A DNA stretch of 64,000 nt, taken from the NCBI GenBank assembly GCA_045598885.1, contig JAZRVB010000139.1:14961-78960 (forward strand), given 5' to 3'. The stretch comes from Bacteroidales bacterium (GTDB taxonomy: Bacteria; Bacteroidota; Bacteroidia; Bacteroidales; UBA3663). Both the position numbers and the translations under genes were made by a program. Below, in pieces: positions 1,544 through 53,705 of the stretch; position 1 is the first letter of the stretch; each line of letters starts with the position of its first letter. Below the pieces are notes generated by a model. It was not told the origin of the DNA and ran no database searches. It saw only the letters and a list, made by a program, of their open reading frames with translations.

Positions 1544-4500
1544 ATGAGACTACGTCATTTTCTTTTCTCCGCAATCCTATTACTTGCTGCACAGGCGGCA
1601 TCTGCCGCACCGTACAGCAAGCATGACTTTGCGTCCTCGTCTGCCCTGGCAGAAGGACATTGGGTCAGAGTAGCTCTCGGCGGCACAGAAGATGGCATCT
1701 ACCAGATATCCTATAGCCAACTGCGGGACATGGGCTTCGCTCAACCTGAAAAGGTCGGAGTCTATGGCTTCGGCGGGCATGTACTCCCGGAGAAACTGGA
1801 GGAGATCGAGTTTGACGACCTCCCAGAGCTGGCTATCTATCAGGATCCGGGCAATAACCGCCTCCTTTTCTACGGTCAGGGACTCGTCCGTTGGGATTAC
1901 TCGTCGGCCAACGGCTTCTATCATCGGCAGAACTCGTATGAGACAGAAGCCTACTATTTCCTGCATCAGAAAGACGGGGCACCTCGCATGATTGAGCCGA
2001 TCACCGATACACCCCACACCACTGACACCTTCTCAGGCACGTATCATGCCCTGGGGCTCCACGAGACGGAATCGGTCAACATCGGACAGACCGGACGAGA
2101 AAAATACGGCGAATCCTTTCTCAGCAACAAGACACAGAGCTTCTCTTTCGGATCCTTTGATGCTGGCAATCTGCAGCTCACGGTCAATGCCATTTCCAAA
2201 GCTTCGTCAGCGACGTCTTTCCTGGTCAAAGCCAACGATGCGGAGATCGGAACGATCAGGTTTGGCGCCGTCAGCTCTGACTATACTTTTGCGCTAGAAG
2301 GGACTCTCAGACAGACGCTACAGCTGGAAAGCAGCTCGGATCTTGACGTGACGCTGACCTACCAGTCGGCAGAAAAAACAGAGATTGCCCGACTGAACTA
2401 TATTACCGTCCAGGGGCCTCGCGGCTTTGTGCTGCCGGAGACCTGCTATACGTTCAGAGGGGAAGATGTGCAGCAGGGATTCGACCTGCATGCGGCTTTC
2501 GGCACGTCGACGGATTCGGCATCATTGGCCGCCTCGCCTTACCAGATCTGGGACGTAAGCTCCGCCGTCGATATCAGGAGACAGCTCCTGGCGGAGGGTG
2601 CCAAGTTCTCTGCATCAGGCGCGAAAGACAGGCCGAATGAATACGTCTTTGTCAATACCGCAGCACGAGACTTCCCCACGGTACGCTCATTGGGCAGAGT
2701 CGCCAACCAGAACCTGCACGCCTTATCAGCGGCAGACCTGGTCATCGTCTCGGCACCGGCCTATCTGAAAGAAGCCAACCGACTGGCAGAGTACCGCCGC
2801 AGCCACGACGGGCTGCAGGTCACCGTCGTAACGCCACAGGAGATCTATAATGAGTTCTCATCGGGTGGCCAGGATGTGACCGCGATCCGCCTGCTGATGA
2901 AAAAGCTGCAGCCTCGCTATCTGCTGCTTTTGGGCAAGGGAAACTTTGACAATCAGAAGATCGACCGTCAGTATTTCCTGCCTTGCTATGAGACAGACAA
3001 CTCCCTTGCGGAGACCTCGTCGTGTGTCTGCGATGACTACTTCGGATTTATCGAGGACGGTGAGGGCGGCAACCTCAGCGGCAATCGCTATAACATCGAC
3101 AACGAGAGCCTGGACATCGGCATCGGACGCCTCCCGGTCAGCACTCAGGCAGAAGCCAAAGATGCGATCGACAAGATCATTGCCTATAGCAACAACCGCT
3201 ATCAGGGCAACTGGAAGAGCCGCCTCTGCTTCCTGAGCGACGATGACAAGGAGGGTGACTCCTATAACGCACACATACGCCACAATGACCAGCTGATCGC
3301 CCGCCTGGAGAAGGCCGGACATAAGGAGTATGCCATGCAGAAGATCTATCTGCCGGCTTACAAGCAGACGAGCACGGCATCGGGAACCGACTATCCGGAT
3401 GCAAAGAAGGAGTTTCTGGAAAGCCTGAAACAGGGCGTCCTGCTGGTCAACTATGCAGGTCATGGAAACACCTCATCGATCACTCACGAAGAGATGATGA
3501 CCTCTGCCGTCGCCTCGCAGCTGAGCATGCGATACCTCCCGGTATGGGTGACAGCGTCGTGCGACGTCGGCCGATGGGACAATGACGACCAGTCGCTCGG
3601 CGAGCACCTGACGCTCAATCCGAACGGTGGAGCCATCGCGATGTTCACCACCGTGCGTGTCGTCTATGCGCACCAGAACCTGGTCCTCAACCAAGCGATC
3701 GTCGACCATCTCTTTAATCGTAACGACGACGGATCGCGCTACCGCCTCGGAGATGTACTGAAAGCGGCCAAGCGCTCCTTAGGTCGAGATTATAACAAGC
3801 TCAATTTCTGTCTGATGGGAGATCCGTCGCTGACGATGGCCTATCCGGAACAACAGATCGCCGTGACAGAAGTCAATGGAAAGGCTGTAGACGCGCTGGC
3901 CGACGACCTGCGGCTCCACGCGCTGGAGACCGTCACGATGAAAGGATCTATCTATAAGACGGGCAGCCAGACAGAGATTGACTCGACCTTCAACGGCATT
4001 GTCTTCCCGACCCTCTATGACGCCCTCGACACGCTGACAGCCGACAAGGGCTATGTCCAGCCCGATGCAGATCCGTACCGGTTTACGACACGCACACGTA
4101 AGGCGTTCTCAGGTCGTGGAGAGGTCAGGAACGGACAGTTTGAGTTCAGTTTCATGATCCCGCAGGATATTGCCTATAGCAGCAGATCCGGCCTGGCTAC
4201 CCTCTACGCCTGTAGCAATGACTGGACAGAGGCGCAAGGCTACTTCGACAAGTATCAGCTGACAGGAGGCCAGGACATCATCCGCACCGATACGGTCGGG
4301 CCTACCATTAACCGGCTTTTCCTCAACGATATGCTGTTCAGCGAGGGAGCGGTGGTCAATAGCACTCCTTATTTCTATGCCGAAGTGAGCGACGAGAGCG
4401 GCTTCAACACGACCGGAAATGGCATCGGTCACGACATGCTGCTGACCATCAAGTGTACGAGTGATCCGTTGCAGAGTGTCAAGCAATACATACTCAACAA

Positions 4501-5032
4501 TTATTTCTCGACCTTCACCGGGCGCTACAACATCGGCAACGTCCAATATAGCATACCCTCTCTTGAGGACGGCGACTATGAGGCATCCTTCATCGTATGG
4601 GACGTCTTCAACAACGCCAGTCGCAAGGTCTTCCATTTCACGGTGGCCAAGGGCAAGGCTCCGTCAGCCGTGACGGTACAAGCCTATCCAAGTCCGGCGA
4701 AGAGCGGTGAGCCGTTGACCTTCCGCGTGCTGCACAACCGCCCGGAATCACAGACGGAGATGCATCTTGAGGTATTCAACGCGCTCGGGCATCGTGTCTA
4801 TGAGACAGAGGTCAAGACCCATCAGGCCGCTAAGTATTACGCGACAGACATCAGTCAACCGACGATTGCCAACACGTCGATCCTGGCAGACGAGACGCCG
4901 AACTTCATGGGTAGCACCAGCGTCGTCTGGTCGACGCCGAACCTTGAAGCGGGCTTTTATATCTATCGTATCGTCTTGACCTCCAATGGGAGCCGGAAGA
5001 TTTCTGATAGTAAGATACTGATTATTGAGTAA
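1544..5032 (+). CDS. porU: type IX secretion system sortase PorU (C25 gingipain-like peptidase)
   Basis: 1162-aa ORF with a signal peptide. C25-like core with a candidate His in NYAGHGN and a candidate Cys in VTASCDVG. Beta-rich C-terminal tail resembles a T9SS CTD. Followed by porV, the usual pairing. Confidence 0.85.
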   Translation: MRLRHFLFSAILLLAAQAASAAPYSKHDFASSSALAEGHWVRVALGGTEDGIYQISYSQLRDMGFAQPEKVGVYGFGGHVLPEKLEEIEFDDLPELAIYQDPGNNRLLFYGQGLVRWDYSSANGFYHRQNSYETEAYYFLHQKDGAPRMIEPITDTPHTTDTFSGTYHALGLHETESVNIGQTGREKYGESFLSNKTQSFSFGSFDAGNLQLTVNAISKASSATSFLVKANDAEIGTIRFGAVSSDYTFALEGTLRQTLQLESSSDLDVTLTYQSAEKTEIARLNYITVQGPRGFVLPETCYTFRGEDVQQGFDLHAAFGTSTDSASLAASPYQIWDVSSAVDIRRQLLAEGAKFSASGAKDRPNEYVFVNTAARDFPTVRSLGRVANQNLHALSAADLVIVSAPAYLKEANRLAEYRRSHDGLQVTVVTPQEIYNEFSSGGQDVTAIRLLMKKLQPRYLLLLGKGNFDNQKIDRQYFLPCYETDNSLAETSSCVCDDYFGFIEDGEGGNLSGNRYNIDNESLDIGIGRLPVSTQAEAKDAIDKIIAYSNNRYQGNWKSRLCFLSDDDKEGDSYNAHIRHNDQLIARLEKAGHKEYAMQKIYLPAYKQTSTASGTDYPDAKKEFLESLKQGVLLVNYAGHGNTSSITHEEMMTSAVASQLSMRYLPVWVTASCDVGRWDNDDQSLGEHLTLNPNGGAIAMFTTVRVVYAHQNLVLNQAIVDHLFNRNDDGSRYRLGDVLKAAKRSLGRDYNKLNFCLMGDPSLTMAYPEQQIAVTEVNGKAVDALADDLRLHALETVTMKGSIYKTGSQTEIDSTFNGIVFPTLYDALDTLTADKGYVQPDADPYRFTTRTRKAFSGRGEVRNGQFEFSFMIPQDIAYSSRSGLATLYACSNDWTEAQGYFDKYQLTGGQDIIRTDTVGPTINRLFLNDMLFSEGAVVNSTPYFYAEVSDESGFNTTGNGIGHDMLLTIKCTSDPLQSVKQYILNNYFSTFTGRYNIGNVQYSIPSLEDGDYEASFIVWDVFNNASRKVFHFTVAKGKAPSAVTVQAYPSPAKSGEPLTFRVLHNRPESQTEMHLEVFNALGHRVYETEVKTHQAAKYYATDISQPTIANTSILADETPNFMGSTSVVWSTPNLEAGFYIYRIVLTSNGSRKISDSKILIIE

Positions 5033-5175
5033 CATGCAAAAAAATAACTTGGTATTTTTTTGCATGTCATCCTGAGAGAAACGAAGGATCTCGTAATTAA
5101 CGGATATGGCTACGTGTGAGATGTTTCGCTTTGCTCAACATGACAAGTGAAAAAATACCAAGTTATTTTTTCACT
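5033..5175. repeat. composite palindromic (MITE/REP-like) element between porU and porV
   Basis: Hairpin A at 5033-5066 has a 14-bp perfect stem (CATGCAAAAAAATA / TATTTTTTTGCATG) and loop ACTTGG. The central imperfect hairpin spans about 5066-5144 (GTCATCCTGAGAGAAACGAAGGATCTC vs GAGATGTTTCGCTTTGCTCAACATGAC). Hairpin A' at 5146-5175 has a 12-bp perfect stem and loop CCAAGT, the reverse complement of loop A. Confidence 0.6.
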
Positions 5176-5197: not shown

Positions 5198-6379
5198 ATG
5201 AAGAGAATACTCATCCTCAGCCTTGCATGTGCATCGTTGACCACAGCTATCGCTCAAGACGAGACCGCGTCAGAGGTTAGCAAATACAATCCGCTCAACC
5301 CTGCCATGATGTCGCTTAGCATCGCACCAGATGCTCGTGGCGGTGCCATGGGCGATGTCGGTGCGGCAACAGAGCCAGACGAGGTCAGCCAATACTGGAA
5401 TCCGGCGAAATATGCCTTTGCCTACAGCCGCAGCGGCATCTCGCTCAACTATACGCCATGGTTGCGCAAAATCACCACGGGCATCAATGTCATGAACGCG
5501 GCCGGCTACTATAAGTTCGGCTACGACGACAACCAGGCGGTCTCGGCCTCCCTGACTTATTTCAGCTTAGGAGAAGTCACGGTGATCAATTCCGAGGGTG
5601 CACAGCTGCAGGTCATCAACCCGATGGAAATGGCGGTCGACGTCGGCTATTCACGTATGCTGAGTCCTAATTTTTCTATGGCCGTAGCCTTCCGCTATCT
5701 CCACTCGGCCATGACATACACCGACTCGGACAACAAGCCAAGCAACACCTTCGCGGCCGACATTGCCGCCTATTATGAGGCCTATCCGCAGATCGGATAC
5801 AATGAGTGCAAGTGGGCCTGGGGTCTCAACATCTCTAACGTCGGTGGCAAGGTCAGCTACGACGGAGGAACGACCAGCCAGTTCCTGCCCGCCAGAATGA
5901 GACTTGGCACCTCATTCACCTTCCCGCTTGACGACTATAACCTGCTTTCTATCAATGCAGATGCAGATAAATATCTCATCCCTGCTACTCCAAAGCGCGG
6001 CAACTATGCGTCGGACGAGGAGTATCAGCAGGCGCTTAAGGATCACTATGCCATGAATGGCTTTACGGGTGTCTTCAAGTCATTCAGTGACGCCCCCCGA
6101 GGCTTCGAAGAAGAACTGGAGGAGATCAACTGGGGCATCGGCGCAGAGTATACTTACGACCGACGTTTCTTCTTGCGAGCCGGTTACCACCATGAGCATG
6201 AAAACAAAGGCGGACGCAAATACTTTACTTTCGGTGCAGGTATCACGCTCAATGTGTTTCATATTGACGCCAGTTACGTGATGAGCAGTGAGCAGACATC
6301 GGCCCTCGACCAGACGTTGCGCTTCACCTTGGGCTTCGACCTCGAAGGTCTTCGTGACATGCTGGGCAGGAGAAGATGA
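5198..6379 (+). CDS. porV: type IX secretion system outer-membrane channel/shuttle protein PorV (LptO)
   Basis: 393-aa ORF with a signal peptide. N-terminal signature APDARGGAMGDVGAATEPDEVSQYWNPAKYAF is typical of PorV. Beta-barrel-like alternating sequence. Located downstream of porU. Confidence 0.85.
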   Translation: MKRILILSLACASLTTAIAQDETASEVSKYNPLNPAMMSLSIAPDARGGAMGDVGAATEPDEVSQYWNPAKYAFAYSRSGISLNYTPWLRKITTGINVMNAAGYYKFGYDDNQAVSASLTYFSLGEVTVINSEGAQLQVINPMEMAVDVGYSRMLSPNFSMAVAFRYLHSAMTYTDSDNKPSNTFAADIAAYYEAYPQIGYNECKWAWGLNISNVGGKVSYDGGTTSQFLPARMRLGTSFTFPLDDYNLLSINADADKYLIPATPKRGNYASDEEYQQALKDHYAMNGFTGVFKSFSDAPRGFEEELEEINWGIGAEYTYDRRFFLRAGYHHEHENKGGRKYFTFGAGITLNVFHIDASYVMSSEQTSALDQTLRFTLGFDLEGLRDMLGRRR

Positions 6380-6413
6380 GAAGCATTGACAGCAATCAAT
6401 TGTAACTCCAATC

Positions 6414-6449
6414 GTAAATCCGTAAATAGTAAATAGTAAATAGTAAATA
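6414..6449. repeat. tandem heptamer repeat (GTAAATA)x4 plus one variant unit
   Basis: GTAAATC at 6414-6420, then four perfect GTAAATA units at 6422-6449. The array ends 4 nt before the GTG at 6454 and 31 nt before the ATG at 6481. Confidence 0.8.
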
Positions 6450-8279: not shown

Positions 8280-8340
8280 GAGTAGGAGCAGATGATATCA
8301 TCGTCACTCGGTACTCTTAACTTTTAACTCTTCACATTTT

Positions 8341-9828
8341 ATGTCACTCATCAAGTCAATCTCAGGCATTCGTGGCACCATCGGCGGTAAGGTCGGTGAG
8401 GGCCTTAATCCACTCGATATCGTCAAGTTCACCGCAGCATACGCTACCGTGATCCGTCGTCATAACCCAGCAGCCAAGCGCATCGTCGTCGGCCGTGACG
8501 CTCGTCTTTCTGGCGAGATGCTCTTCCAGTGTGTCTCTGGCACGCTCATCGGCATGGGCTTCGATGTCATCAACATCGGCCTCGCTACTACTCCTACCAC
8601 TGAGATTGCTGTGACTGCAGAGAAGGCTGACGGTGGCATCATCCTCACCGCTTCGCACAACCCTATCCAGTGGAACGCGCTCAAGCTCCTCAACAACGAG
8701 GGCGAATTCTTCGACAAGGCTACTGGCGAGGAGGTGCTCCAGATTGCCGAGGCAGAGGACTTCGACTTCCCAGCTATCACTCCTAAGACCTACACGGGCA
8801 ACGAGTCACAGACAGAGTCAGATCCTAACTATGAGGGCAATCCTATCGGCCATATCATCGAGAAGGATTATACCGACTACCACATCCAGCAGGTGCTCGA
8901 CCTCAAGCTCGTCGATGCTGAGGCAGTGAAGAAGGCCGGCTTCCGTGTGGTTTGCGACTGTATCAACTCTATCGGTGGCGTGATCATCCCTAAGCTGCTC
9001 CGCACTATGGGTGTTGAGGTTGTCGAGCTCAACTGCCAGCCGACCGGCAACTTCGCTCACATGCCTGAGCCAATCGTGGCTAACCTTCAGGGCATCAGCA
9101 ACTATATGAAGGAGGCATACAATTCCTCACTCCTCACTCCTAACTCCTCACTCAAGATCGATCTTGGCGTGATTGTCGATCCAGATGTCGATCGCCTCGC
9201 ATTCGTACAGGAGACCGGTGAGCTCTTCGGCGAGGAATATACCCTCGTTTCTGTTGCAGATTACGTGCTCCAGCATACTCCGGGCAACACCTGCTCTAAC
9301 CTCTCTTCTTCACGCGCTCTCCGCGACGTGACTCGTGCTCACGGAGGCAGTTACAGCGCTGCAGCTGTCGGTGAGGTCAACGTAGTGACCAAGATGAAGG
9401 ACACCAACGCCATTATCGGTGGCGAGGGAAATGGCGGTGTCATCTATCCTGAGGCTCACTACGGTCGCGACGCTTTGGTCGGTGTAGCTCTCTTCCTCAC
9501 CAACCTCGCTCAGCTCCGCGAGAAGAATCCATCGCTCACCGTCTCTGAGCTCCGCGCAAGCTATCCTCCTTACGAGATCGCTAAGCAGCGTGTAGACCTC
9601 TCTCCAGACATTGACGTTGATGGCGTATTGCTCCGCATGAAAGAGAAGTATCAGGGGCAGCCAGGTATCGAAGTAACTGATATCGACGGCGTGAAGCTCG
9701 ACTTCGAGGACCGCTGGGTACACATGCGCAAGTCTAATACTGAGCCTATCATCCGTATCTATGCAGAGGCTTCGACCATGGAGGAGGCTCAGAAGACGGC
9801 GGATGCTATCAAGGCAGAACTGTCGTAA
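8341..9828 (+). CDS. glmM: phosphoglucosamine mutase
   Basis: N-terminus MSLIKSISGIRGTIGG. Active-site Ser loop TASHNP. Metal loop DPDVDR. At 495 aa it is longer than I recall for Bacteroidota GlmM; see the finding on the embedded 32-bp repeat. Confidence 0.9.
   Translation: MSLIKSISGIRGTIGGKVGEGLNPLDIVKFTAAYATVIRRHNPAAKRIVVGRDARLSGEMLFQCVSGTLIGMGFDVINIGLATTPTTEIAVTAEKADGGIILTASHNPIQWNALKLLNNEGEFFDKATGEEVLQIAEAEDFDFPAITPKTYTGNESQTESDPNYEGNPIGHIIEKDYTDYHIQQVLDLKLVDAEAVKKAGFRVVCDCINSIGGVIIPKLLRTMGVEVVELNCQPTGNFAHMPEPIVANLQGISNYMKEAYNSSLLTPNSSLKIDLGVIVDPDVDRLAFVQETGELFGEEYTLVSVADYVLQHTPGNTCSNLSSSRALRDVTRAHGGSYSAAAVGEVNVVTKMKDTNAIIGGEGNGGVIYPEAHYGRDALVGVALFLTNLAQLREKNPSLTVSELRASYPPYEIAKQRVDLSPDIDVDGVLLRMKEKYQGQPGIEVTDIDGVKLDFEDRWVHMRKSNTEPIIRIYAEASTMEEAQKTADAIKAELS
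9121..9152. repeat. 32-bp repeat copy 1 (inside the glmM CDS)
   Basis: AATTCCTCACTCCTCACTCCTAACTCCTCACT is identical to 20259-20290. Here it is read in frame as NSSLLTPNSSL. Confidence 0.9.
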
Positions 9829-11600: not shown

Positions 11601-11628
11601 GAGGACCCTCCCCACCCTCCCTCAAAGG

Positions 11629-12315
11629 ATGGGAGATATTAAGTTACTAATGCAATTAAAAAAACTCACTATAGGATATAAAAGTTCAGCGCCAATCGTT
11701 TTTTCGATTGACGCTGAATTGCTACCTGCTACCTTTACCTGTCTTCTGGGAAGGAATGGCACAGGCAAGAGTACCTTGCTGATGACTCTGGCCGACCTGC
11801 TCAAGCCACTCGACGGACACATTATATATAATAAGGAGCAGCGGCCGGCGCTGGTACTGCCCAAAATGCCAGAACTCACGAATACCACCGTGCGAGAACT
11901 GGTAGCTTACGGACGCCTGCCCTATACCGACCTCTTCGGAAAGTTAAAACCTGCTGATTACGAAGCCGCAGACTCAGCCATAGAACGCGTCGGCATCACG
12001 GCCTTAGCAGACAGATATGTCCATCTGCTGAGCGACGGAGAGCGACAGAAAGCGCTCATCGCCAGAGGCCTCGCACAGGGGGCTGACACGCTCCTCCTGG
12101 ACGAACCGAGCGCCTTCCTCGACTATCCGAGCCGTCGACAGCTGATGACTCTCCTTCAGCAACTTGCACACCAGGAAGGAAAAACCATACTGCTCAGTAC
12201 CCACGATGTGGAACTTGCGGCGCAATACGCTGATAATCTATGGATCATCCTAGACCATCAGCTCATAGAGCAGAATCCTCAGAGCTTCAGCGCCGAGGAT
12301 CACTTCAGCGGCTGA
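11629..12315 (+). CDS. ABC transporter ATP-binding protein (FecE/BtuD-like), no adjacent permease
   Basis: Walker A GRNGTGKST, signature LSDGERQ, Walker B LLLDEP. The track ORF from 11455 overlaps the preceding gene. The ATG at 11629 (MGDIKLL...) follows that gene's stop. Confidence 0.8.
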   Translation: MGDIKLLMQLKKLTIGYKSSAPIVFSIDAELLPATFTCLLGRNGTGKSTLLMTLADLLKPLDGHIIYNKEQRPALVLPKMPELTNTTVRELVAYGRLPYTDLFGKLKPADYEAADSAIERVGITALADRYVHLLSDGERQKALIARGLAQGADTLLLDEPSAFLDYPSRRQLMTLLQQLAHQEGKTILLSTHDVELAAQYADNLWIILDHQLIEQNPQSFSAEDHFSG

Positions 12316-20207: not shown

Positions 20208-20220
20208 GAGACCCTACCCC

Positions 20221-20247
20221 CTACCCCTCCACAAGGGAGGGGAGTAG
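20221..20247 (+). terminator. GC-rich hairpin after lepA
   Basis: CCCCTCC (20224-20230) pairs with GGAGGGG (20236-20242) around a 5-nt loop. Flanking TA/TA pairs follow a bulge. There is no clear U-tract. Confidence 0.4.
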
Positions 20248-20258
20248 AATGTCCTCCT

Positions 20259-20290
20259 AATTCCTCACTCCTCACTCCTAACTCCTCACT
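20259..20290. repeat. 32-bp repeat copy 2 (intergenic, lepA to methyltransferase)
   Basis: Identical to 9121-9152. It ends 5 nt before the ATG at 20296. Related CTCCTCACT words also occur at 28666-28682. Confidence 0.9.
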
Positions 20291-22629: not shown

Positions 22630-22696
22630 TCTATCCGGAAGAAAATATTCAAATAATCTCACATTGTGTCACTAAGACACAAATAGGAACGGAAAT

Positions 22697-22840
22697 ATGG
22701 CTTCGCGTTTTTACGAAGCCATATTTCTGTTTTTATTTATGGTTTCGTTCATGCACGAAGCCATAACCTGGTACCTATCTATGGTTTCGTTCATGCACGA
22801 AGCCACAACCTCGTACCCATCTATGGTTTCGCGTCAGAGG
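22697..22840. repeat. tandem hairpin array, 42-bp period, about 3.4 units
   Basis: Units start at 22697, 22739, 22781 and 22823 (ATGG[C/T]TTCG...CGAAGCCA[T/C]). Each unit holds a 9-bp stem. The 66-aa ORF 22697..22897 is a translation artefact of the repeat. Confidence 0.85.
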
Positions 22841-22858
22841 AATACCTATAAACAAAAT

Positions 22859-22884
22859 CTGGTGGACCTTTGCAGATCCACCAG
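22859..22884. terminator. hairpin between the convergent antiporter and rnfA genes
   Basis: CTGGTGGA (22859-22866) pairs with TCCACCAG (22877-22884) around a 10-nt loop. It is positioned to serve both converging transcripts. Confidence 0.5.
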
Positions 22885-22912
22885 ATGTAAAGATTGATTC
22901 GATACTATAATA

Positions 22913-23515
22913 TTAGCCAATACCGAAGATAGCCTTGAGAGTGTTGTCGATGCCAGAGAAGCCCATGAAAGCCATGGCAAGGAGACCTGCGGTGATGAGG
23001 GCAATAGGGGTTCCCTTCATGCCCTTAGGAAGGCTGGTGATCTCGAGCTGCTCGCGGATACCTGCGAAGAGGACCATAGCGAGGGTGAAGCCGAGAGCGG
23101 TAGCTACAGCGTATACTGCTGACTCAAGGATGTTGTACTCGAAGTTGATGACGTTGATGGCAACACCAAGGATAGTACAGTTGGTAGTGATCAATGGGAG
23201 GAATACACCGAGAGCTGCATAGAGCGATGGCATAGACTTCTTGAGGATGATCTCGACCATCTGTACGAGAGCAGCGATAACGAGGATGTAGACGATGGTC
23301 TGCATGAACTCGAGGCCTGCTGGTACGAGGATGCCGTAGTAGATAGGATAAGTCACCAAGGTAGCGATAAGCATAACGAATGCTACTGCCATACCCATGC
23401 CAGCTGCAGTGTCGATCTTCTTAGATACACCGAGGAATGGACAGATACCAAGGAACTGTGCCAGGACGATATTATTAACGAATATCGCGGCAATGATCAT
23501 AATAATATAACTCAT
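22913..23515 (-). CDS. rnfA: Rnf electron transport complex subunit A
   Basis: 200-aa polytopic membrane protein of the RnfA/NqrE type. Last gene of the rseC-rnfBCDGEA order. Confidence 0.9.
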   Translation of the reverse strand: MSYIIMIIAAIFVNNIVLAQFLGICPFLGVSKKIDTAAGMGMAVAFVMLIATLVTYPIYYGILVPAGLEFMQTIVYILVIAALVQMVEIILKKSMPSLYAALGVFLPLITTNCTILGVAINVINFEYNILESAVYAVATALGFTLAMVLFAGIREQLEITSLPKGMKGTPIALITAGLLAMAFMGFSGIDNTLKAIFGIG

Positions 23516-23531
23516 GATTCTGTATCTTTTA

Positions 23532-23654
23532 GTTTAGAGTTTAGAGATTAGAGTTTAGAGAAGTTAATTAGTTCTATAGGTTATTGGAAAACCAAAACAC
23601 ATAATAGCTCTTAACTTATTAACTACTCTCAACTATAAACTCTCAACACTAAAC
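23532..23654. repeat. long imperfect hairpin element filling the rnfE-rnfA spacer
   Basis: The arms 23532-23573 and 23613-23654 are complementary at 34 of 42 positions. They are built from GAGTTTAG-type words. The loop is about 39 nt. Confidence 0.7.
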
Positions 23655-24239
23655 TTATTTATTGAAAATCTTGTTGAAGATAGCACTCAGATAACCGAGG
23701 GTAAGGAATGCACCTGGAGCGAGGACGAAGGTGAGAGCACCATAGTTCTCAGGGAAGATTGGCAATCCGAATACTGCACCTGTGCCAAGGATCTCGCGAC
23801 AAGCACCGATGATGGTGAGTGCTACGGTGAAACCGAGACCGATGCCGATACCGTCACAAGCAGAATCGAGCGCGCCATTCTTAGCGGCAAATGACTCTGC
23901 ACGACCGAGTACGATACAGTTTACAACGATCAATGGAATGAACAGACCGAGCTTAGCGTCAACCTCAGGCAAATAAGCCTTCAGGCAGAGCTGGACAACT
24001 GTCACGAAGCCTGCGATGACGACGATATAGCATGGGATATGTACCTTATCAGGGATAAAGCCCTTGATCAATGAGATAACGATGTTTGAGCAGATGAGTA
24101 CTGCCATGGTGGCAAGACCCATCGACATACCGTTGATGGCCGAAGAGGTGGTACCCAGGGTTGGGCACATACCAAGGAGCAACACGAAGGTTGGGTTCTC
24201 CTTAATGAGGCCGTTGATAATAATACCAAGTTTACTCAT
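23655..24239 (-). CDS. rnfE: Rnf electron transport complex subunit E
   Basis: 194-aa polytopic membrane protein of the RnfE/NqrD type (LLLGMCPTLG..). Confidence 0.9.
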   Translation of the reverse strand: MSKLGIIINGLIKENPTFVLLLGMCPTLGTTSSAINGMSMGLATMAVLICSNIVISLIKGFIPDKVHIPCYIVVIAGFVTVVQLCLKAYLPEVDAKLGLFIPLIVVNCIVLGRAESFAAKNGALDSACDGIGIGLGFTVALTIIGACREILGTGAVFGLPIFPENYGALTFVLAPGAFLTLGYLSAIFNKIFNK

Positions 24240-24266
24240 ATTATATATTATTATACGGTTCTACAA

Positions 24267-24947
24267 TTATTCACCTGAAGGATTAGCCTCCTCAGGACCA
24301 TCAGTGGTCTGATCTTCTGCCTCAGTCTCTGCTGGTGCAGCAGGAGCAGCAGCCTGCTGAGTAGCAGAAGTAGCAGCATCAACACCTGAGATAACACTGT
24401 ATGCCTGAGCTACAGCATCGAGGAATGCACGTGAAGAAATGGTAGCAGCAGTGATGGCATCAACCTCGCCACCGTCCTTGCTGACGGTGAGGTTGTTCTT
24501 GCCAGGGTTCTTGCCAATGACGTCACCCTTAGCGCCTTTCTGGAACCATTCAGGCATCTTTGAACCGAGGCCTGGGGTCTCAGCGTGGTTGAGGACAGCG
24601 TAACCAGAGATGTTCTTCTCAGCGTCGAAACCGATCATAACGGTTACCTTGCCACCGAAACCATTCTTGGTGATGGCCTGTACGGCGCAACCAACCTGCT
24701 GGCCACCCTTCATCACTGGGAATACGGTAGCTGCCTCGCCATTGGTTGAAGTAGAGGTGGTAGCCTCGCCTACGGTATCGAACTCTGGAGCAACGGCCTT
24801 GATAGCGGCTGTCTGAGCAGCAGCGGTAGCCTGCGCGATAGGATCGGCAGTAACCATAGCTACAGCACCGAGAAGACCGCCTACGACAACAGTGATCACT
24901 GTCAACGACAGGAACATGTTCTTAAGAGAATTTTCAAGCTTTGCCAT
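24267..24947 (-). CDS. rnfG: Rnf electron transport complex subunit G (FMN-binding)
   Basis: N-terminal TM helix. FMN-attachment region VDAITAATISSRAF. Ala/Pro/Glu-rich C-terminal tail. Confidence 0.88.
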   Translation of the reverse strand: MAKLENSLKNMFLSLTVITVVVGGLLGAVAMVTADPIAQATAAAQTAAIKAVAPEFDTVGEATTSTSTNGEAATVFPVMKGGQQVGCAVQAITKNGFGGKVTVMIGFDAEKNISGYAVLNHAETPGLGSKMPEWFQKGAKGDVIGKNPGKNNLTVSKDGGEVDAITAATISSRAFLDAVAQAYSVISGVDAATSATQQAAAPAAPAETEAEDQTTDGPEEANPSGE

Positions 24948-24955
24948 AGTAGTGA

Positions 24956-25906
24956 TTACTTATTAACAACGCCAAAACGCTGTGGTTTTACATAGGTGTT
25001 GAGCAAAGGTACGAAGGCGTTCATAATGAAGATCGCGAACGACATACCCTCAGGGTAAGCACCGAAACGACGGATCACGATAGTCAGGAAACCGATGCAG
25101 ACACCGTAGATGAGCTGCGAGCGTGAGTTCATTGGAGAAGTCACATAGTCGGTAGCCATGTAGATAGCACCAAGCATCATACCACCACAGAGGAGCTCGG
25201 TAACGGCGATCTGGAAGTCGAAACCATAGAACAGGAAGCCGAATACGAGTGAAGAGAGGAGGATCGATACTGGAATGTGCCAGGTAATGGTCTTGCGGAT
25301 GAGCATGTAGACGAAACCGATGAGCAATGCGATGGCTGAGATCTCACCCATCGAACCACCGGTAGTACCAACGAGGCAGTCGATCATATTAGGGAGCTCT
25401 ACGTTAGCGCCATTGATGTACTGACCGATGACAGCCAATGGAGTAGCACCGGTAGCGACGTCAGCATAACCAGCCTCGGTAGGCCAGGTGGTCATCTGTA
25501 CTGGATAAGCCACGAGGAGGAAGATACGACCAGTGAGCGCTGGGTTGAAGATGTTCTGGCCCAAGCCACCGTAAGACATCTTGCCGATGCCGATAGCTAC
25601 GAGAGCGCCGATGATGATGATCCAGATTGGGAGGTTACTTGGCACGTTGAAAGCCAGGAGCAGACCGGTGAGGACTGCAGAGAGATCGCAGATGCTTGGA
25701 GTCGTCTTCATGACGAACTTCTGAATCAGGAACTCAAAAAGCACGCAAGCACATACGGCAGTGAGGGTGACGATGATGGCACCCATGCCGAACTGGTAGA
25801 ACGACCAGAGCAGTGCAGGACACAGCGCAATGATCACCTGAAGCATACACTTCTGGGTGCTGTTGCCGCTGTGGACGTGCGGAGACAATGAGACGTTAAG
25901 TTTCAT
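24956..25906 (-). CDS. rnfD: Rnf electron transport complex subunit D
   Basis: 316-aa polytopic membrane protein of the RnfD/NqrB type with a TGATPLA flavin-attachment-like motif. Confidence 0.9.
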   Translation of the reverse strand: MKLNVSLSPHVHSGNSTQKCMLQVIIALCPALLWSFYQFGMGAIIVTLTAVCACVLFEFLIQKFVMKTTPSICDLSAVLTGLLLAFNVPSNLPIWIIIIGALVAIGIGKMSYGGLGQNIFNPALTGRIFLLVAYPVQMTTWPTEAGYADVATGATPLAVIGQYINGANVELPNMIDCLVGTTGGSMGEISAIALLIGFVYMLIRKTITWHIPVSILLSSLVFGFLFYGFDFQIAVTELLCGGMMLGAIYMATDYVTSPMNSRSQLIYGVCIGFLTIVIRRFGAYPEGMSFAIFIMNAFVPLLNTYVKPQRFGVVNK

Positions 25907-26032
25907 ATTCTATAAATTGAAGAATTGAAGAATTAAAGAATTATAAAATTGTTACCTTTTCTTCGCGAATAATCTCGTCAAAAGGACATTCAATTCTATC
26001 ATTTTTTAATTCTATCATTTTATAATTAATAA
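25907..26032. repeat. AT-rich hairpin element filling the rnfC-rnfD spacer (paralog of 27416-27560)
   Basis: The arms 25915-25951 and 25991-26027 are complementary at 27 of 37 positions. The loop contains TTCGCGAA. Long blocks are shared with the rnfB-rnfC element (ATAAAATTGTTAC.., ..TTATCATTTTATAATT). Confidence 0.7.
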
Positions 26033-27415
26033 TTACTTCTTTGCTTCTGCAGCAGCCTTTGCAGCATCGGCCTTGGCCTTAGCCTCAGCAGCACGTGCAC
26101 GAAGGATACCCATTACCTTTGGCTTACCCTGACGGATCCAGTCGAGCAATGGACGGTTGGCAGGACATGAGAACTGGCAAGAGCCGCACTCGATACAGTC
26201 GTATACGCGCTCCTCCTCAGCCTTGTCGAGCATGTTGAGCTCAGAATACTTAGCCAGAAAGTTTGGCTGAAGACCCATTGGACAAGCATGTACACACTTG
26301 GCACACTTGATACAAGGACCAGCTGCCTTACGGCGAGCCTCCTCATTCTTCATGATCAGTATGCCAGAGCAACCCTTGACCATATAAGAATTGGTGTCTG
26401 GCATAGCCTTACCCATCATTGGACCACCAGAGATGATCTTGCCAGTATCCTCAGGAACGCCACCAGCAGCAGCGATGAGGTCAGCAACAGGAACGCCGAG
26501 ACGAGCGAGGAAGTTCGATGGCTTCTTGACAGACTTACCAGTGACAGTAACGACACGCTCGATGAGTGGCTTGTTCTTCTGAACAGCCTCGTATACGGCA
26601 AATGCGGTACCAACGTTCTGAACGAGAGCGCCAGTAGCGATTGGCAGGCCGCCTGATGGAACCTCCTTACCGATAACAGCATTGATCAACTGCTTCTCAC
26701 CACCCTGTGGATACTTGAGCTGGAGAGGAACGATCTCGATCTCAGGGAAACCCTTCTTTGCGGTCTCGGTCATGAGCTTGATAGCATCTGGCTTGTTGGC
26801 CTCGATACCTACGTAAGCCTTCTTGACACCCATAGCCTTCTCAAGGATCTGCACACCGATGAGGATTTCCTCAGGATGAGCGAGCATGAGTGAGTGGTCA
26901 GAGGTGAGATATGGCTCACACTCTACAGCATTGATGATGACACACTCTGGCTTGGCTGTAGGAGGAGGAGTAAGCTTGACCTGAGTTGGGAAGGTAGCAC
27001 CACCCATACCTACGATACCGCATGCCTTGACGCGGTCGATGATCTCCTGCTTCTCAAGCTTGATCTCGCGGACAATGTCCTTCGAGCGGTCGATGGTCTC
27101 TTCCCACTCGTCGCCCTCAACCTTGATGAAGACAGCTGGCACCTTCTTGCCGGTGGCATCCTCAACGAGATCTACCTTATCGACAGTACCTGAGACTGAA
27201 GAATGTACGAAAGAAGAAAGGAATCCGCCTGGCTCGCCAATTGGAGTACCCACCTTCACCTTATCGCCTTTAGCGACGATAGCCTTTGACGGAGCACCCA
27301 GGTTCTGTGCCATTGGGATGGCGACAACTGCAGGAACTGCAGCCACCTCGATAGGCGCCTTGTCTGAAAGCTTATTTGCGGCGGGATGAACACCGCCGAG
27401 TTTGAAAGTCTTCAT
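26033..27415 (-). CDS. rnfC: Rnf electron transport complex subunit C
   Basis: GMGGATFPT nucleotide-binding region. Two 4Fe-4S motifs, CIKCAKCVHACP and CIECGSCQFSCP. Ala/Lys-rich C-terminal tail. Confidence 0.92.
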   Translation of the reverse strand: MKTFKLGGVHPAANKLSDKAPIEVAAVPAVVAIPMAQNLGAPSKAIVAKGDKVKVGTPIGEPGGFLSSFVHSSVSGTVDKVDLVEDATGKKVPAVFIKVEGDEWEETIDRSKDIVREIKLEKQEIIDRVKACGIVGMGGATFPTQVKLTPPPTAKPECVIINAVECEPYLTSDHSLMLAHPEEILIGVQILEKAMGVKKAYVGIEANKPDAIKLMTETAKKGFPEIEIVPLQLKYPQGGEKQLINAVIGKEVPSGGLPIATGALVQNVGTAFAVYEAVQKNKPLIERVVTVTGKSVKKPSNFLARLGVPVADLIAAAGGVPEDTGKIISGGPMMGKAMPDTNSYMVKGCSGILIMKNEEARRKAAGPCIKCAKCVHACPMGLQPNFLAKYSELNMLDKAEEERVYDCIECGSCQFSCPANRPLLDWIRQGKPKVMGILRARAAEAKAKADAAKAAAEAKK

Positions 27416-27560
27416 ATTATCAATTTTGCTTTTACAATCAAAAAATCAAATTATAAAATTGAAGAATTAGAAAATTATAAAATTGTTACTTCTCTTACGC
27501 GAAATGTCACATCAAGCAGCACATACAATTCTATAATTATTTAATTTTATCATTTTATAA
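27416..27560. repeat. AT-rich hairpin element filling the rnfB-rnfC spacer (paralog of 25907-26032)
   Basis: Two arms of about 37 bp (about 27450-27486 and 27525-27561) are complementary at 29 of 37 positions. The loop contains TACGCGAA. Confidence 0.7.
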
Positions 27561-28553
27561 TTATTGGTTCTGCTGTGCTGCAGCTGGAGCAGCGGCAGGA
27601 GCAGCCTGCTGTGCTACTGGGGTAGCCTCAGCAGCGGCCTTGGCAGCGGCAGCAGCCTCTGCGGCAGCCTTCTTCTCAGCTTCCTTCTTAGCCTTGAGCT
27701 TGTCGACTACAACCTGGACAGCTGGAGTGCAGTGGATAGCACCTGTTGGGCACTCGCTTACGCACATGCCACAAGCCTTACACTTCTCTACGTCGATGTA
27801 AGCCACATTGTTCTCAACGGTGATAGCCTCGAACTTACAGGTCTTCTGGCACTTACCACAACCGATACAAGCGCTGGCACAAGCCTTACGAGCCGCAGCA
27901 CCCTTGTCCTTGTTGATACAAGATACCCAGACACGCTTAGGCTGGTTAGACTTCATTGAGGTCTTCTTGCGGAGCTCAAGCACGATCTTAGGACATGCCT
28001 TCGTACAAGCACCACAAGCCACACACTTGTCTTCGTCGACCTCAGGAAGGCCAGTCTCAGTGTTCATGTGGATAGCATCGAAGGTACAAGCCTTCACACA
28101 GTCACCCAGTCCGAGACAGCCGAATGCGCAACCAGTCTCGCCAGCGAAAGTAGCAGCAGCTACAGCACAAGACTTAGCGCCATCGTAGCTGGCAGTCTTA
28201 GGGCGGCAAGCAATGCTACCATTACAACGAACCACAGCGACCTTTGGTTCAGCAGCACCAGCCTCTACACCGAGGACACCAGCCACCTTAGCCATGCAGT
28301 CAGCGCCACCTACAGGACAGAGCAGGCTACCCAGCGAATTGCTGGCATCCTTCTCCTTCACGCAGGCATCGGCCATACCGTGGCAACCAGGGAAGCCACA
28401 GCCACCGCAGTTAGCGCCTGGCAGCAACTCCTCTACCTGACCCACTCGTGGATCTTCGAAGACATAGAACTTCTTGGCCACAAAATAAAGGACCAAAGAG
28501 CCAATGACTCCAATCGCACCAAGTACGATAAGAGAAACTAAAATTAAATTCAT
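27561..28553 (-). CDS. rnfB: Rnf electron transport complex subunit B (polyferredoxin-type)
   Basis: N-terminal TM helix. Cys clusters CGGCGFPGC, CVACGACTKACP, CIGCGKCQKTC and CKACGMCVSECP. A C-terminal tail of about 50 aa is rich in Ala, Lys, Pro and Gln. Confidence 0.9.
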   Translation of the reverse strand: MNLILVSLIVLGAIGVIGSLVLYFVAKKFYVFEDPRVGQVEELLPGANCGGCGFPGCHGMADACVKEKDASNSLGSLLCPVGGADCMAKVAGVLGVEAGAAEPKVAVVRCNGSIACRPKTASYDGAKSCAVAAATFAGETGCAFGCLGLGDCVKACTFDAIHMNTETGLPEVDEDKCVACGACTKACPKIVLELRKKTSMKSNQPKRVWVSCINKDKGAAARKACASACIGCGKCQKTCKFEAITVENNVAYIDVEKCKACGMCVSECPTGAIHCTPAVQVVVDKLKAKKEAEKKAAAEAAAAAKAAAEATPVAQQAAPAAAPAAAQQNQ

Positions 28554-28588
28554 AATGTTATAATATTATTTAGTTGTTGATAATTTCT

Positions 28589-28682
28589 CAGTTAGGAGTG
28601 AGGAGATAGGTGTTAGGAGTTATTCCTGCAACGTAAAATAAGCGCGTGAGGGGAAACACTCCAAACTCCTCACTCCTCACTG
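28589..28682. repeat. imperfect hairpin element in the rseC-rnfB spacer (AGGAGTGAGGAG words)
   Basis: The left arm CAGTTAGGAGTGAGGAG... starts at 28589 and the right arm ...CTCCTCACTCCTCACTG ends at 28682. The first 17 bp pair with 1 mismatch. The loop contains AGCGCGTGAGGGG. Confidence 0.65.
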
Positions 28683-28683
28683 T

Positions 28684-29091
28684 TTACGATCGTGCGATCG
28701 TAAACACCACCTTTCGATTGAGCTTGTCCCTTTGAGCAAAAAGTACCAGATAATAGACCGCCAGTACACCGAGCGTAATCAGGCAAGCCATCATCTCCCC
28801 GACAAGAGGGACAGCCACAAAAAGCGCGATGAAAGCCAGTACCAACGGTACCATAAACGCCAGCACCACGGCCGACCAGGCCATCTCATTGCTCACAATG
28901 ATATTGACTTTCTCCCCTACACTATACTCCACACCCTGACTATCGGCCACAACGATCTTCTCCGCCTGGTCCTGACTAGAGCAGATGCCCTTAGCATGAC
29001 ATCCGGAACATGCGGAATTCTGAATAAAGCAAACAGTCACTTGTCGGCCGTCGACTTTCACAACGCGGCCATCATGTGTAATATTTTTCAT
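28684..29091 (-). CDS. rseC: RseC/MucC (SoxR-reducing system) family protein, first gene of the Rnf operon
   Basis: 135 aa. N-terminal Cys motif CSGCHAKGIC followed by two TM helices. The position upstream of rnfB is typical. Confidence 0.8.
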   Translation of the reverse strand: MKNITHDGRVVKVDGRQVTVCFIQNSACSGCHAKGICSSQDQAEKIVVADSQGVEYSVGEKVNIIVSNEMAWSAVVLAFMVPLVLAFIALFVAVPLVGEMMACLITLGVLAVYYLVLFAQRDKLNRKVVFTIARS

Positions 29092-29135: not shown

Positions 29136-29143
29136 CAAATTTA
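29136..29143 (-). promoter_or_regulatory. candidate -7 box for the rseC-rnf operon
   Basis: The minus strand reads TAAATTTG (TAnnTTTG) 44 nt upstream of the rseC ATG at 29091. No convincing -33 TTTG at the expected spacing. Confidence 0.3.
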
Positions 29144-46287: not shown

Positions 46288-46324
46288 AACTCTTTAACTT
46301 TTTAACTCTTTAACTTTTTAACTT
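46288..46324. repeat. tandem 16-bp repeat (AACTCTTTAACTTTTT x2.3)
   Basis: Perfect units at 46288-46303 and 46304-46319, plus a partial unit at 46320-46324. It lies directly 5' of the GTG start at 46286 on the coding (minus) strand and fills most of the 51-bp spacer. Confidence 0.85.
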
Positions 46325-53427: not shown

Positions 53428-53492
53428 CTTATATATTTATTATTGTTTATTGTTTTATTGCTTTGAATCCGTGAAACGGTATCTTTTGAGCA

Positions 53493-53618
53493 GGAACGGA
53501 CGTCTTGAGTGCACGGCGTCCATTCTTTGTCGCGGGAATGGACAGCCTGAGTCCACGGCGTCCTTTCTTTGCAGCGGGAATGGACATTCTGAGTCCACGG
53601 CGTCCATTCCTTGATCGC
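53493..53618. repeat. tandem hairpin array, 42-bp period, 3 units
   Basis: Units start at 53493, 53535 and 53577 (GGAA[C/T]GGAC..16 nt..GTCC[A/T]TTC). The clearest, unit 3, pairs GGAATGGAC with GTCCATTCC. Located in the 278-bp gap between the 800-aa and 830-aa genes. Confidence 0.85.
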
Positions 53619-53652
53619 GGAAGCTGACATCGCGTACGTGTTGTCAGCTTCC
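53619..53652 (-). terminator. perfect 11-bp hairpin adjoining the 42-bp array (attenuator/terminator or RNA-stability element)
   Basis: GGAAGCTGACA (53619-53629), a 12-nt loop, then TGTCAGCTTCC (53642-53652). In the sense direction it is the first structure after the 800-aa gene's stop at 53706. Confidence 0.45.
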
Positions 53653-53705
53653 ACGAGTCAGGATCGGACAAACTGAGATCAGTTGTACGATCGACAAGTT
53701 GTTTT

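Follow-up and report, generated by a model that had tools for sequence, protein, structure and literature searches.

Paralogous and unrelated hairpin spacers at the gene junctions of a Bacteroidales rnf operon

The window analysed here, 64,000 nt of a Bacteroidales contig (JAZRVB010000139.1, positions 14,961 to 78,960), carries on its minus strand the operon RseC-like-rnfB-rnfC-rnfD-rnfG-rnfE-rnfA (22913-29091; open reading frame (ORF) calls and NCBIfam models), in which four of the spacers between genes can fold into one long hairpin. An earlier note had singled out two of these spacers, those on either side of rnfC, as AT-rich hairpin elements that resemble each other. Sequence comparison shows the two elements to be paralogues, copies of a non-coding intercistronic hairpin specific to this lineage, and they account for two of the four in the operon. 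We show that hairpins of unrelated sequence have an architecture and polarity in common, that they recur at specific junctions, and that their alleles are exchanged between strains. We propose, with about half of our confidence, that the elements are dispensable intercistronic hairpins in the rnf mRNA which grew from leader repeat arrays, were copied locally and are exchanged by recombination.

The two spacers, 25907-26032 between rnfC and rnfD and 27416-27560 between rnfB and rnfC, lie at the junctions to which they had been assigned, as judged by ORF calls and NCBIfam models. Blastn within the window aligns them at 82-83% identity over 114-117 nt (E = 1e-25 to 2e-27), confirming the long shared blocks described in the earlier note and identifying the spacers as paralogues. 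That note had named loss of the similarity in a proper alignment as an outcome that would speak against it; the similarity survives alignment and runs through both arms and the loop. The shared unit of ~115 nt, loop included, occupies 25914-26027 and 27448-27563, on the minus strand in both cases. In the rnfB-rnfC copy the 5′ arm on the mRNA (27525-27562) is free of C and the 3′ arm (27449-27486) free of G, with the loop at 27487-27524; the arms are 38 nt long, 82% complementary and 38 nt apart. The rnfC-rnfD copy has a 5′ arm at 25991-26031 and a G-poor 3′ arm at 25911-25951; these arms, 76% complementary over 41 nt, enclose a loop of 39 nt (25952-25990). These values are close to the 27/37 and 29/37 paired positions previously counted for the imperfect inverted repeats. 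Folding of the mRNA strand gave a minimum free energy (MFE) of -23.8 kcal/mol for rnfC-rnfD and -28.5 kcal/mol for rnfB-rnfC (z = -2.7 and -2.6), and the opposite DNA strand of both hairpins folds about equally well. The loops are indeed richer in GC, as had been observed, at 0.39-0.43 vs ~0.2 for either spacer taken as a whole; on the plus strand they carry [TA]CGCGAA, and their sequences there include TTCGCGAA and TACGCGAA.

The earlier description of an element running from one stop codon to the next start holds for the rnfC-rnfD copy but not for the rnfB-rnfC copy, whose hairpin ends ~35 nt before the rnfC ATG. Here the rnfB stop codon abuts or overlaps the 5′ arm, and an unstructured, A/U-rich tail (27416-27447, minus strand) lies between the hairpin and the ATG. 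This tail (…GATTGTAAAAGCAAAATTGATAAT) is similar to the tail of one relative (locus L090) and to the whole of the 23-nt spacer of another (L005), and is probably the ancestral short leader, suggesting that the hairpin was added between the stop codon and this older leader, which was kept. Both spacers are non-coding. A 25-codon ORF in the rnfC-rnfD copy (MIELKNDRIECPFDEIIREEKVTIL) was considered as a small peptide gene and rejected; the rnfB-rnfC copy has an indel, an early stop and non-conservative substitutions. Rfam returned zero matches at gathering thresholds across the whole window, and around the spacers only chance-level matches (at most 18.6 bits, E of at least 0.4), all far under the gathering score.

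The other two hairpins (~95-123 nt), at the RseC-rnfB and rnfE-rnfA junctions, are unrelated in sequence to the pair around rnfC and to one another. The 130-nt RseC-rnfB spacer (28554-28683) folds into one long hairpin (MFE -39.6 kcal/mol, z = -6.1) at 28589-28682 on the minus strand, with GTGAGGA-type heptamers in its 5′ arm, CTCCTCA/CTCCTAA heptamers in its 3′ arm and a 35-nt A-rich tail (28554-28588). The 139-nt rnfE-rnfA spacer (23516-23654) likewise forms one long hairpin (MFE -36.1 kcal/mol, z = -4.0), located at 23532-23654 on the minus strand, with GTTTAGT/GTTGAGA heptamers in the 5′ arm, G-free CTCTAAA heptamers in the 3′ arm and a 16-nt tail (23516-23531). All four follow a common plan, i.e., a stop codon, a C-poor 5′ arm, a GC-richer loop of 25-40 nt, a G-poor 3′ arm, an A/U-rich tail and an ATG. 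The 5′ arm begins 0-8 nt past the stop codon (in the rnfC-rnfD copy 15 nt by the MFE fold and 4 nt by the inverted-repeat arms), and the tail to the ATG measures 4-35 nt in the four window hairpins and 10-39 nt in the tally of hairpin placement. The same polarity, with more G than C in the 5′ half and more C than G in the 3′ half, is found in 12 of the 13 hairpins in the genus, and in 10 of the 11 alleles deemed independent by our own grouping. Long single hairpins occupy four of the six rnf junctions vs one of the 28 other same-strand junctions of the window (Fisher p ~0.0015, calculated by hand), where other AT-rich spacers do not fold; the rnfD-rnfG (8 nt) and rnfG-rnfE (27 nt) junctions are without a hairpin. 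Within the RseC-rnfB hairpin, the stop-proximal arm GUGAGGAGUGAGGAG (28597-28626, minus strand) contains two Shine-Dalgarno (SD)-like GAGGAG motifs, and the CUCCUCA repeats of the leader arm with which it pairs match the anti-SD core CCUCC in sense; as SD pairing is not used in this phylum, the observation is a curious one.

The genes that border these spacers, all on the minus strand, are RseC-like (28684-29091, by ORF call) and, by ORF and NCBIfam model, rnfB (27561-28553), rnfC (26033-27415), rnfD (24956-25906), rnfG (24267-24947), rnfE (23655-24239) and rnfA (22913-23515); those around the operon are housekeeping genes, judged by synteny with annotated loci. A candidate Bacteroidetes -7 promoter box, TAAATTTG (29136-29143, minus strand), lies 45 nt upstream of the RseC-like start, and a terminator-like GC-rich hairpin with a T-run (22857-22886, minus strand) just 3′ of rnfA would end the transcription unit. 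The -7 box TAnnTTTG is absent from all four spacers, the sole nearby one being that upstream of the first gene, and no terminator-like site (a GC-rich stem followed by a U-run) was found within the four. Because a -7 box precedes the first gene and a terminator-like hairpin follows rnfA, the spacers are probably intercistronic parts of one transcript, which agrees with the earlier placement of the two paralogous spacers inside the Rnf operon. Matches to sigma-70-type promoters, a consensus irrelevant to Bacteroidetes, did not rise above shuffled controls and were set aside.

The nearest database relatives of RnfC are proteins of Bacteroidales metagenome-assembled genomes (MAGs). Exact-sequence searches with RnfC and RnfD had no match in the collections searched, and those with RnfA and RnfE matched other species only. 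A comparison with ~80 Bacteroidales rnf loci from metagenomes, with RnfC identities of 60-67%, gave spacers of 5-60 nt; the long "spacers" first seen in L012, L023, L030 and L099 were rejected as artefacts of frameshifted genes. Family-level relatives (L001-L006 and L009; 80-85% nucleotide identity in rnfC) have AT-rich spacers of 19-76 nt with tandem GTAATT/GTAAAT-type heptamers, and their sole hairpin, at the rnfE-rnfA junction of L006, is GC-rich and is repeated elsewhere in the L006 locus. Within the genus, where rnf genes are 85-95% identical in nucleotides to those of the window, the occurrence of hairpins is patchy. The closest locus, the syntenic L089 (92-95% from rnfB to rnfA), has spacers of 33-48 nt only, L005 and L091 have short spacers too, and 23-48-nt spacers are found at rnfB-rnfC and rnfC-rnfD in relatives at 88-95% nucleotide identity in the rnf genes. 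Hairpins are present at rnfB-rnfC (120 nt) and rnfC-rnfD (110 nt) in L090, at rnfC-rnfD (125 nt) in L093/L099, at rnfB-rnfC (134 nt), rnfC-rnfD (177 nt) and rnfE-rnfA (105-107 nt) in L103-L107, and at rnfC-rnfD (200 nt) and rnfB-rnfC (interrupted by the contig end) in L108, while L098 has a 154-nt homologue of the rnfE-rnfA hairpin of the window. Neither rnfD-rnfG (5-8 nt) nor rnfG-rnfE carries a hairpin in any genus locus compared.

Similarity in pairwise alignments is mainly restricted to hairpins of one genome or species group: the pair in the window, the rnfB-rnfC and rnfC-rnfD hairpins of L108, and, in the arms only, those of L103/L106. Orthologous similarity links the window to L098 at rnfE-rnfA and to L090 at RseC-rnfB; beyond these, hairpins that different species carry at a shared junction are unrelated, and the paralogy of the two junctions around rnfC recurs in L108 with a different sequence. 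Equally long but unrelated spacers in close relatives had been expected to tell against the earlier reading, and the comparison came out divided: L090, L093, L103 and L108 have equally long, sequence-unrelated hairpins, and L089, L005 and L091 have short spacers. Because close relatives carry equally long unrelated hairpins at these junctions, the recurring property is, on this comparison, a hairpin at the junction and not one particular repeat. The hairpins are, by the same comparison, dispensable for Rnf function, because sister species are without them.

Exchange of spacer alleles is most evident between L103 and L106, which are ~99.4% identical over 4.5 kb of the operon and have identical rnfC-rnfD hairpins and entirely different rnfE-rnfA hairpins. 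The divergent tract (L103 7730-7885 vs L106 3950-4087) extends from a point 33 nt within rnfE, around which the differences cluster, as far as the rnfA ATG, and bears the signature of homologous recombination bringing in a foreign spacer allele. Between the window and L098, the arms and tail of the rnfE-rnfA hairpin are 100% identical, whereas 11 substitutions and a 15-nt indel separate the two loops and identity in the flanking genes is ~92%; this would reflect either constraint on the arms or a recent exchange of the allele. The ends of rnfG, rnfC and rnfB (24309-24381, 26039-26066 and 27573-27666) encode Ala/Lys/Gln-rich low-complexity tails with similar GCAGC-type repeats, and the length of RnfC varies between 457 and 501 aa among relatives owing to its low-complexity tail. 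Such shared gene ends before both junctions flanking rnfC could offer homology for spacer exchange.

The earlier note had taken the two spacers for repeat elements domesticated, or merely tolerated, inside the operon. Toleration agrees with the relatives that are without them; a repeat family colonising the operon did not emerge. Blastn found no third copy of the two-spacer element in the window and no further copy over ~1 Mb of related loci, and a covariance model built from the two copies found nothing outside rnf junctions in 276 kb of genus and family loci. The model scores the two copies at 131-138 bits and any other mRNA-strand sequence at 30 bits or less; its borderline matches to other hairpin spacers (E = 0.06-0.8) do not establish a wider family. 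A 17-mer shared by the copies is missing from all 108 fetched loci. A 25-base two-block pattern common to both copies has two matches in 185,579 species genomes, one in L008, which as read has no similarity past the two blocks, and one in an uninspected Clostridiaceae MAG; metagenome contigs gave zero matches to a second pattern and viral contigs zero to the first. Exact-pattern scans are insensitive to diverged copies, and these appear to argue against a large dispersed family without excluding one. Comparison of filled and empty junctions revealed no target-site duplication bracketing either copy; the one duplication nearby, TTTGATT in the tail, is a slippage repeat. The G-poor arm lies beside the start codon in both copies and in 12 of the 13 genus hairpins. 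In size and structure the element does have the features of MITEs (miniature transposable elements with inverted repeats), being short (within about 50-500 bp) and non-coding with terminal inverted repeats that form a hairpin.

The hairpin arms consist of tandem 7-8-nt units, namely AATTCTTC/AATTTTAT, CTCCTCA and CTCTAAA, and Tandem Repeats Finder (TRF) detected periods of 7-8 nt in 3.5-5.3 copies in all four spacers as well as upstream of other genes. G-poor tandem 7-8-mers in the intergenic DNA of the window comprise AATAGTA x5.6 (6397-6449; 6410-6449), ACTCTTA (8313-8341), CTCCTCA x5.3 (20254-20290), AACTTTTT x4.6 (46288-46324) and AGTTAAC x4.1 (62529-62557), of which at least the first three reach up to a start codon. 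Relatives carry other repeat units at the same junctions as these arrays.

In the explanation that we favour, the hairpins would originate by inverted duplication or extension of G-poor tandem-repeat leader arrays (quasi-palindrome growth), would spread by copying between the two junctions flanking rnfC, and would pass as spacer alleles among strains and species by homologous recombination via the conserved rnf genes. They would be transcribed within the polycistronic rnf mRNA, as the promoter and terminator signals suggest, and would owe their toleration to a position right against the preceding stop codon that spares the start-proximal leader, with 16-35 nt before the ATG left unpaired. Bacteroidetes initiate without SD pairing and depend on leaders that are low in GC and free of structure; translation in Prevotella bryantii was undiminished by a hairpin at -21 and was cut five-fold by structure near the start (PMC3155529). 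Hairpins with a free start-proximal leader fit these results. Their most likely effect would be the one common to long stem-loops between cistrons, that of a processing site or decay barrier that can shift the relative stability of mRNA segments, and would probably be modest; a role in mRNA processing or translation, as proposed before, is plausible. Several points weigh against this explanation. The stems show no excess of G-U over A-C appositions (5 vs 7), and covariation between two sequences is both uninformative and circular, so that the stems do not indicate selection for RNA pairing. No match to the loop, and with it no source, was found in ~1 Mb. A neutral origin leaves the strong concentration of hairpins in rnf unexplained, and the identity of the rnfE-rnfA arms between flanks of ~92% could reflect functional constraint beyond mere toleration. 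Co-transcription and any effect at the RNA level are read from sequence, and additional dispersed copies are possible elsewhere in the genome, the scans having reached the window, ~1 Mb and the pattern collections.

Rather unlikely, in our judgement, is that the hairpins are selected cis-regulatory RNA modules, acting either in translational coupling by unmasking or in segmentation by RNase III. In the coupling version, which would not depend on SD pairing, the G-free leader of the following cistron would stay masked by the anti-leader arm and become accessible once a ribosome that terminates at the adjoining stop codon has opened the stem. A translational-coupling model with intergenic hairpins unfolded by upstream ribosomes reportedly exists. 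In the RNase III version the stems would be sites at which the rnf mRNA is divided into pieces whose ends are protected by hairpins, thereby setting subunit ratios, and the paired hairpins would excise the rnfC segment. Structure near the start does reduce translation in Prevotella (PMC3155529). Selection of this kind would also suit the constant geometry, with a stop codon abutting the 5′ arm and a leader-type arm beside the start, the recurrence, in several species, of hairpins at three or four shared junctions, with the architecture kept and the sequence not, the concentration in rnf, the identity of the rnfE-rnfA arms in two species and the paralogy of the rnfC-flanking hairpins in two species. 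However, a terminating ribosome would open only the outer ~10-12 bp of a 34-47-bp stem, the nearest relatives (L089, L005 and L091) function without hairpins, and the stems lack a G-U bias (5 G-U vs 7 A-C), covariation being not measurable from two copies. In addition, the 16-35-nt tails spare the critical start region, and the hairpin at -21 was harmless in P. bryantii (PMC3155529). We think it quite unlikely that the hairpins form a previously undescribed operon-level control module for an SD-less genus, in which the stop-abutting anti-leader would pair with the next G-free leader, downstream initiation or RNase III segmentation would depend on upstream translation, and exchanged alleles would tune Rnf subunit ratios. 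An RNA thermometer was also considered and found no support; the relatives apparently come from gut metagenomes.

It is distinctly improbable that the two spacers are MITE-like or ERIC/Correia-like small mobile elements, with many genomic copies and two chance landings in rnf. With a size of 115-145 bp, inverted termini that are long, a place between genes of one transcript and a presence that varies among relatives, they do match the general description of prokaryotic MITEs (PMC10969869), the ancestral rnfB-rnfC spacer lies intact beside the element as it would following insertion, and the L006 rnfE-rnfA hairpin, of another, GC-rich kind, has more copies in the same locus. Yet there are only two copies, in one operon, and none in the other 62 kb of the window, in the 276 kb searched with the covariance model or in the ~1 Mb searched by blastn, and the pattern scans yielded only the two genome matches described above (nothing past the two blocks in L008, the Clostridiaceae MAG uninspected) and none in metagenome or viral contigs. 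The junctions show no target-site duplication, tandem 7-8-mers of low complexity make up the termini, the orientation is fixed where transposition would yield both, and sister species have unrelated sequences at the same junctions. A function at the DNA level, as an integron attC-like recombination site, a protein-binding array or an invertible segment, we regard as very improbable. Palindromes right after the stop codons of co-oriented genes, alike in structure only, give a superficial resemblance to attC, both strands fold equally well, and the spacers are exchanged as cassettes. Integron attC sites have an inverse core RYYYAAC on the 5′ side and a core GTTRRRY on the 3′ side; such cores (5′ RYYYAAC ... 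GTTRRRY 3′) are absent here, and the words of the rnfE-rnfA hairpin stand in the reversed arrangement (GTTTAG...CTAAAC). The L106 tract, which starts inside rnfE with scattered substitutions, looks like the product of homologous and not site-specific recombination, the neighbours are housekeeping genes with no integrase among the syntenic ones, and loops of 25-40 bp are probably too short for recombinase-mediated inversion. Hardly any credence is left for chance similarity and for hairpins arising from AT-rich low-complexity sequence: the spacers are ~80% A+T and built of short repeats, and low-complexity sequences inflate similarity scores, but the identity continues through the GC-containing loops, the blastn E values (1e-25 to 2e-27) and covariance scores (131-138 vs at most 30 bits) set the two copies apart, and the hairpins fold with z = -2.6 to -6.1 while other AT-rich spacers of the window do not fold.

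The window contains other hairpins and repeats. The same-strand spacer that separates the ORFs 1544-5032 and 5198-6379 is taken up by a 133-nt near-perfect hairpin at 5039-5171 (54-nt arms, 81% complementary, MFE -55.5 kcal/mol, z -8.2); the arms of this hairpin, which are not of low complexity, contain GTCATCCTGAGAGAAACGAAGGATCTC, and a search of the window and the loci gave no second copy. The stretch 22671-22831, which lies downstream of rnfA and separates convergent genes, holds a 42-nt tandem repeat of 2.3 copies with the unit hairpin CGAAACCATA…TATGGCTTCG, leading into a hairpin with 35-nt arms (22671-22748). An unrelated array with a 42-nt period (2.7 copies, hairpin units GGAATGGAC…GTCCATTCC) lies in the 278-nt same-strand spacer 53428-53705, together with a palindrome at 53602-53669. 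A GC-rich hairpin motif, GAG(G)ACCCTnCCCC…CCCTCC-loop-GGAGGG, directly follows two stop codons (11601-11640 and 20208-20250), and an element of the same style is multi-copy in L006 (3554-3713 and 13711-13839), where one copy occupies the rnfE-rnfA spacer; the motif probably represents a separate dispersed repeat family of these Bacteroidales.

Initiation in Bacteroidota proceeds without SD pairing, and the balancing of cistrons within an operon is poorly understood in this phylum. Here a conserved respiratory operon has hypervariable junctions within one genus, with repeatedly polar leader/anti-leader hairpins that vary even among near-identical strains. The more interesting fact would seem to be these genus-wide, junction-specific, polar and rapidly exchanged hairpin spacers, with a functional role as a proposal. 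If the hairpins act on the mRNA, the short spacer, one hairpin and another hairpin would provide a natural allelic series for relating intercistronic structure to the ratios of subunits in bacteria without SD pairing. Neutral hairpins, on the other hand, would be a clear example of palindrome growth out of short tandem repeats, and a reminder that a pair of intergenic hairpins need not be a mobile element. Such spacers mislead the calling of start codons, and could serve as strain markers.

Among known systems, REPINs are long imperfect extragenic hairpins made of two inverted REP units with a short spacer, GC-rich, present in tens to hundreds of copies and associated with a RAYT transposase. 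The rnf hairpins are likewise long, imperfect and extragenic with two inverted units, but only two copies are known, with none further in the scans of the window, 276 kb and ~1 Mb. In the early mRNA of phage T7, intercistronic RNase III sites are cleaved to give separately stable mRNAs; such sites, like coupling hairpins, are stem-loops between cistrons of one transcript that are cleaved or opened by ribosomes. The likeness would be a functional analogy only, without sequence relationship and in an organism without SD-based initiation. Correia elements duplicate a TA target, which is not seen here. They are 100-155-bp hairpin elements of Neisseria (CREE/NEMIS), co-transcribed with operons and cut by RNase III at their paired termini (PMC10969869). 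As hairpin-forming, co-transcribed elements they are the best precedent for a possible action of the hairpins on rnf mRNA, but they belong to a high-copy family with conserved inverted termini, neither of which is seen here. ERIC/IRU elements of enterobacteria, imperfect palindromes of ~127 bp, lie in intergenic regions that are transcribed; ERIC reaches 30-700 copies per genome and its insertions can alter the decay of host transcripts (PMC10969869). The spacers resemble ERIC and MITEs in their ~115-145 bp, their long imperfect hairpin, their non-coding position between co-transcribed genes and their presence or absence in close relatives. In contrast to those dispersed elements with a consensus, they occur as two copies in one operon, in fixed orientation and without a target-site duplication, have arms of tandem 7-8-mers and differ in sequence at the same junction in sister species.

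The closest parallel to the arms themselves is offered by the little-studied TAACTGA heptamer repeats, which are direct, tandem and forward and lie within a few nt of start codons (MacGregor 2015, PMC4679880). They occur in Beggiatoaceae, cyanobacteria and a few Bacteroidetes, including Paludibacter, a member of the Bacteroidales, now and then with a reverse array right after a stop codon; close relatives have shorter, repeat-free spacers, and a role as S1/Csp-type binding sites in translation has been proposed (PMC4679880). The 3′ arms of the rnf hairpins qualify as leader repeats of this type, being tandem forward 7-mers that end a few to tens of nt before the start, as do many other leaders of the window. 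The units of the arms, however, are varied and differ between genomes, with ACATTTT in L103 and, in the window, a single TAACTGA at the end of the RseC-rnfB arm, and they are paired with an inverted array over a 25-40-nt loop to form a 95-140-nt hairpin, whereas one inverted repeat only has been described for the TAACTGA arrays (PMC4679880). The inverted pairing of heptamer arrays into long hairpins goes beyond that description.

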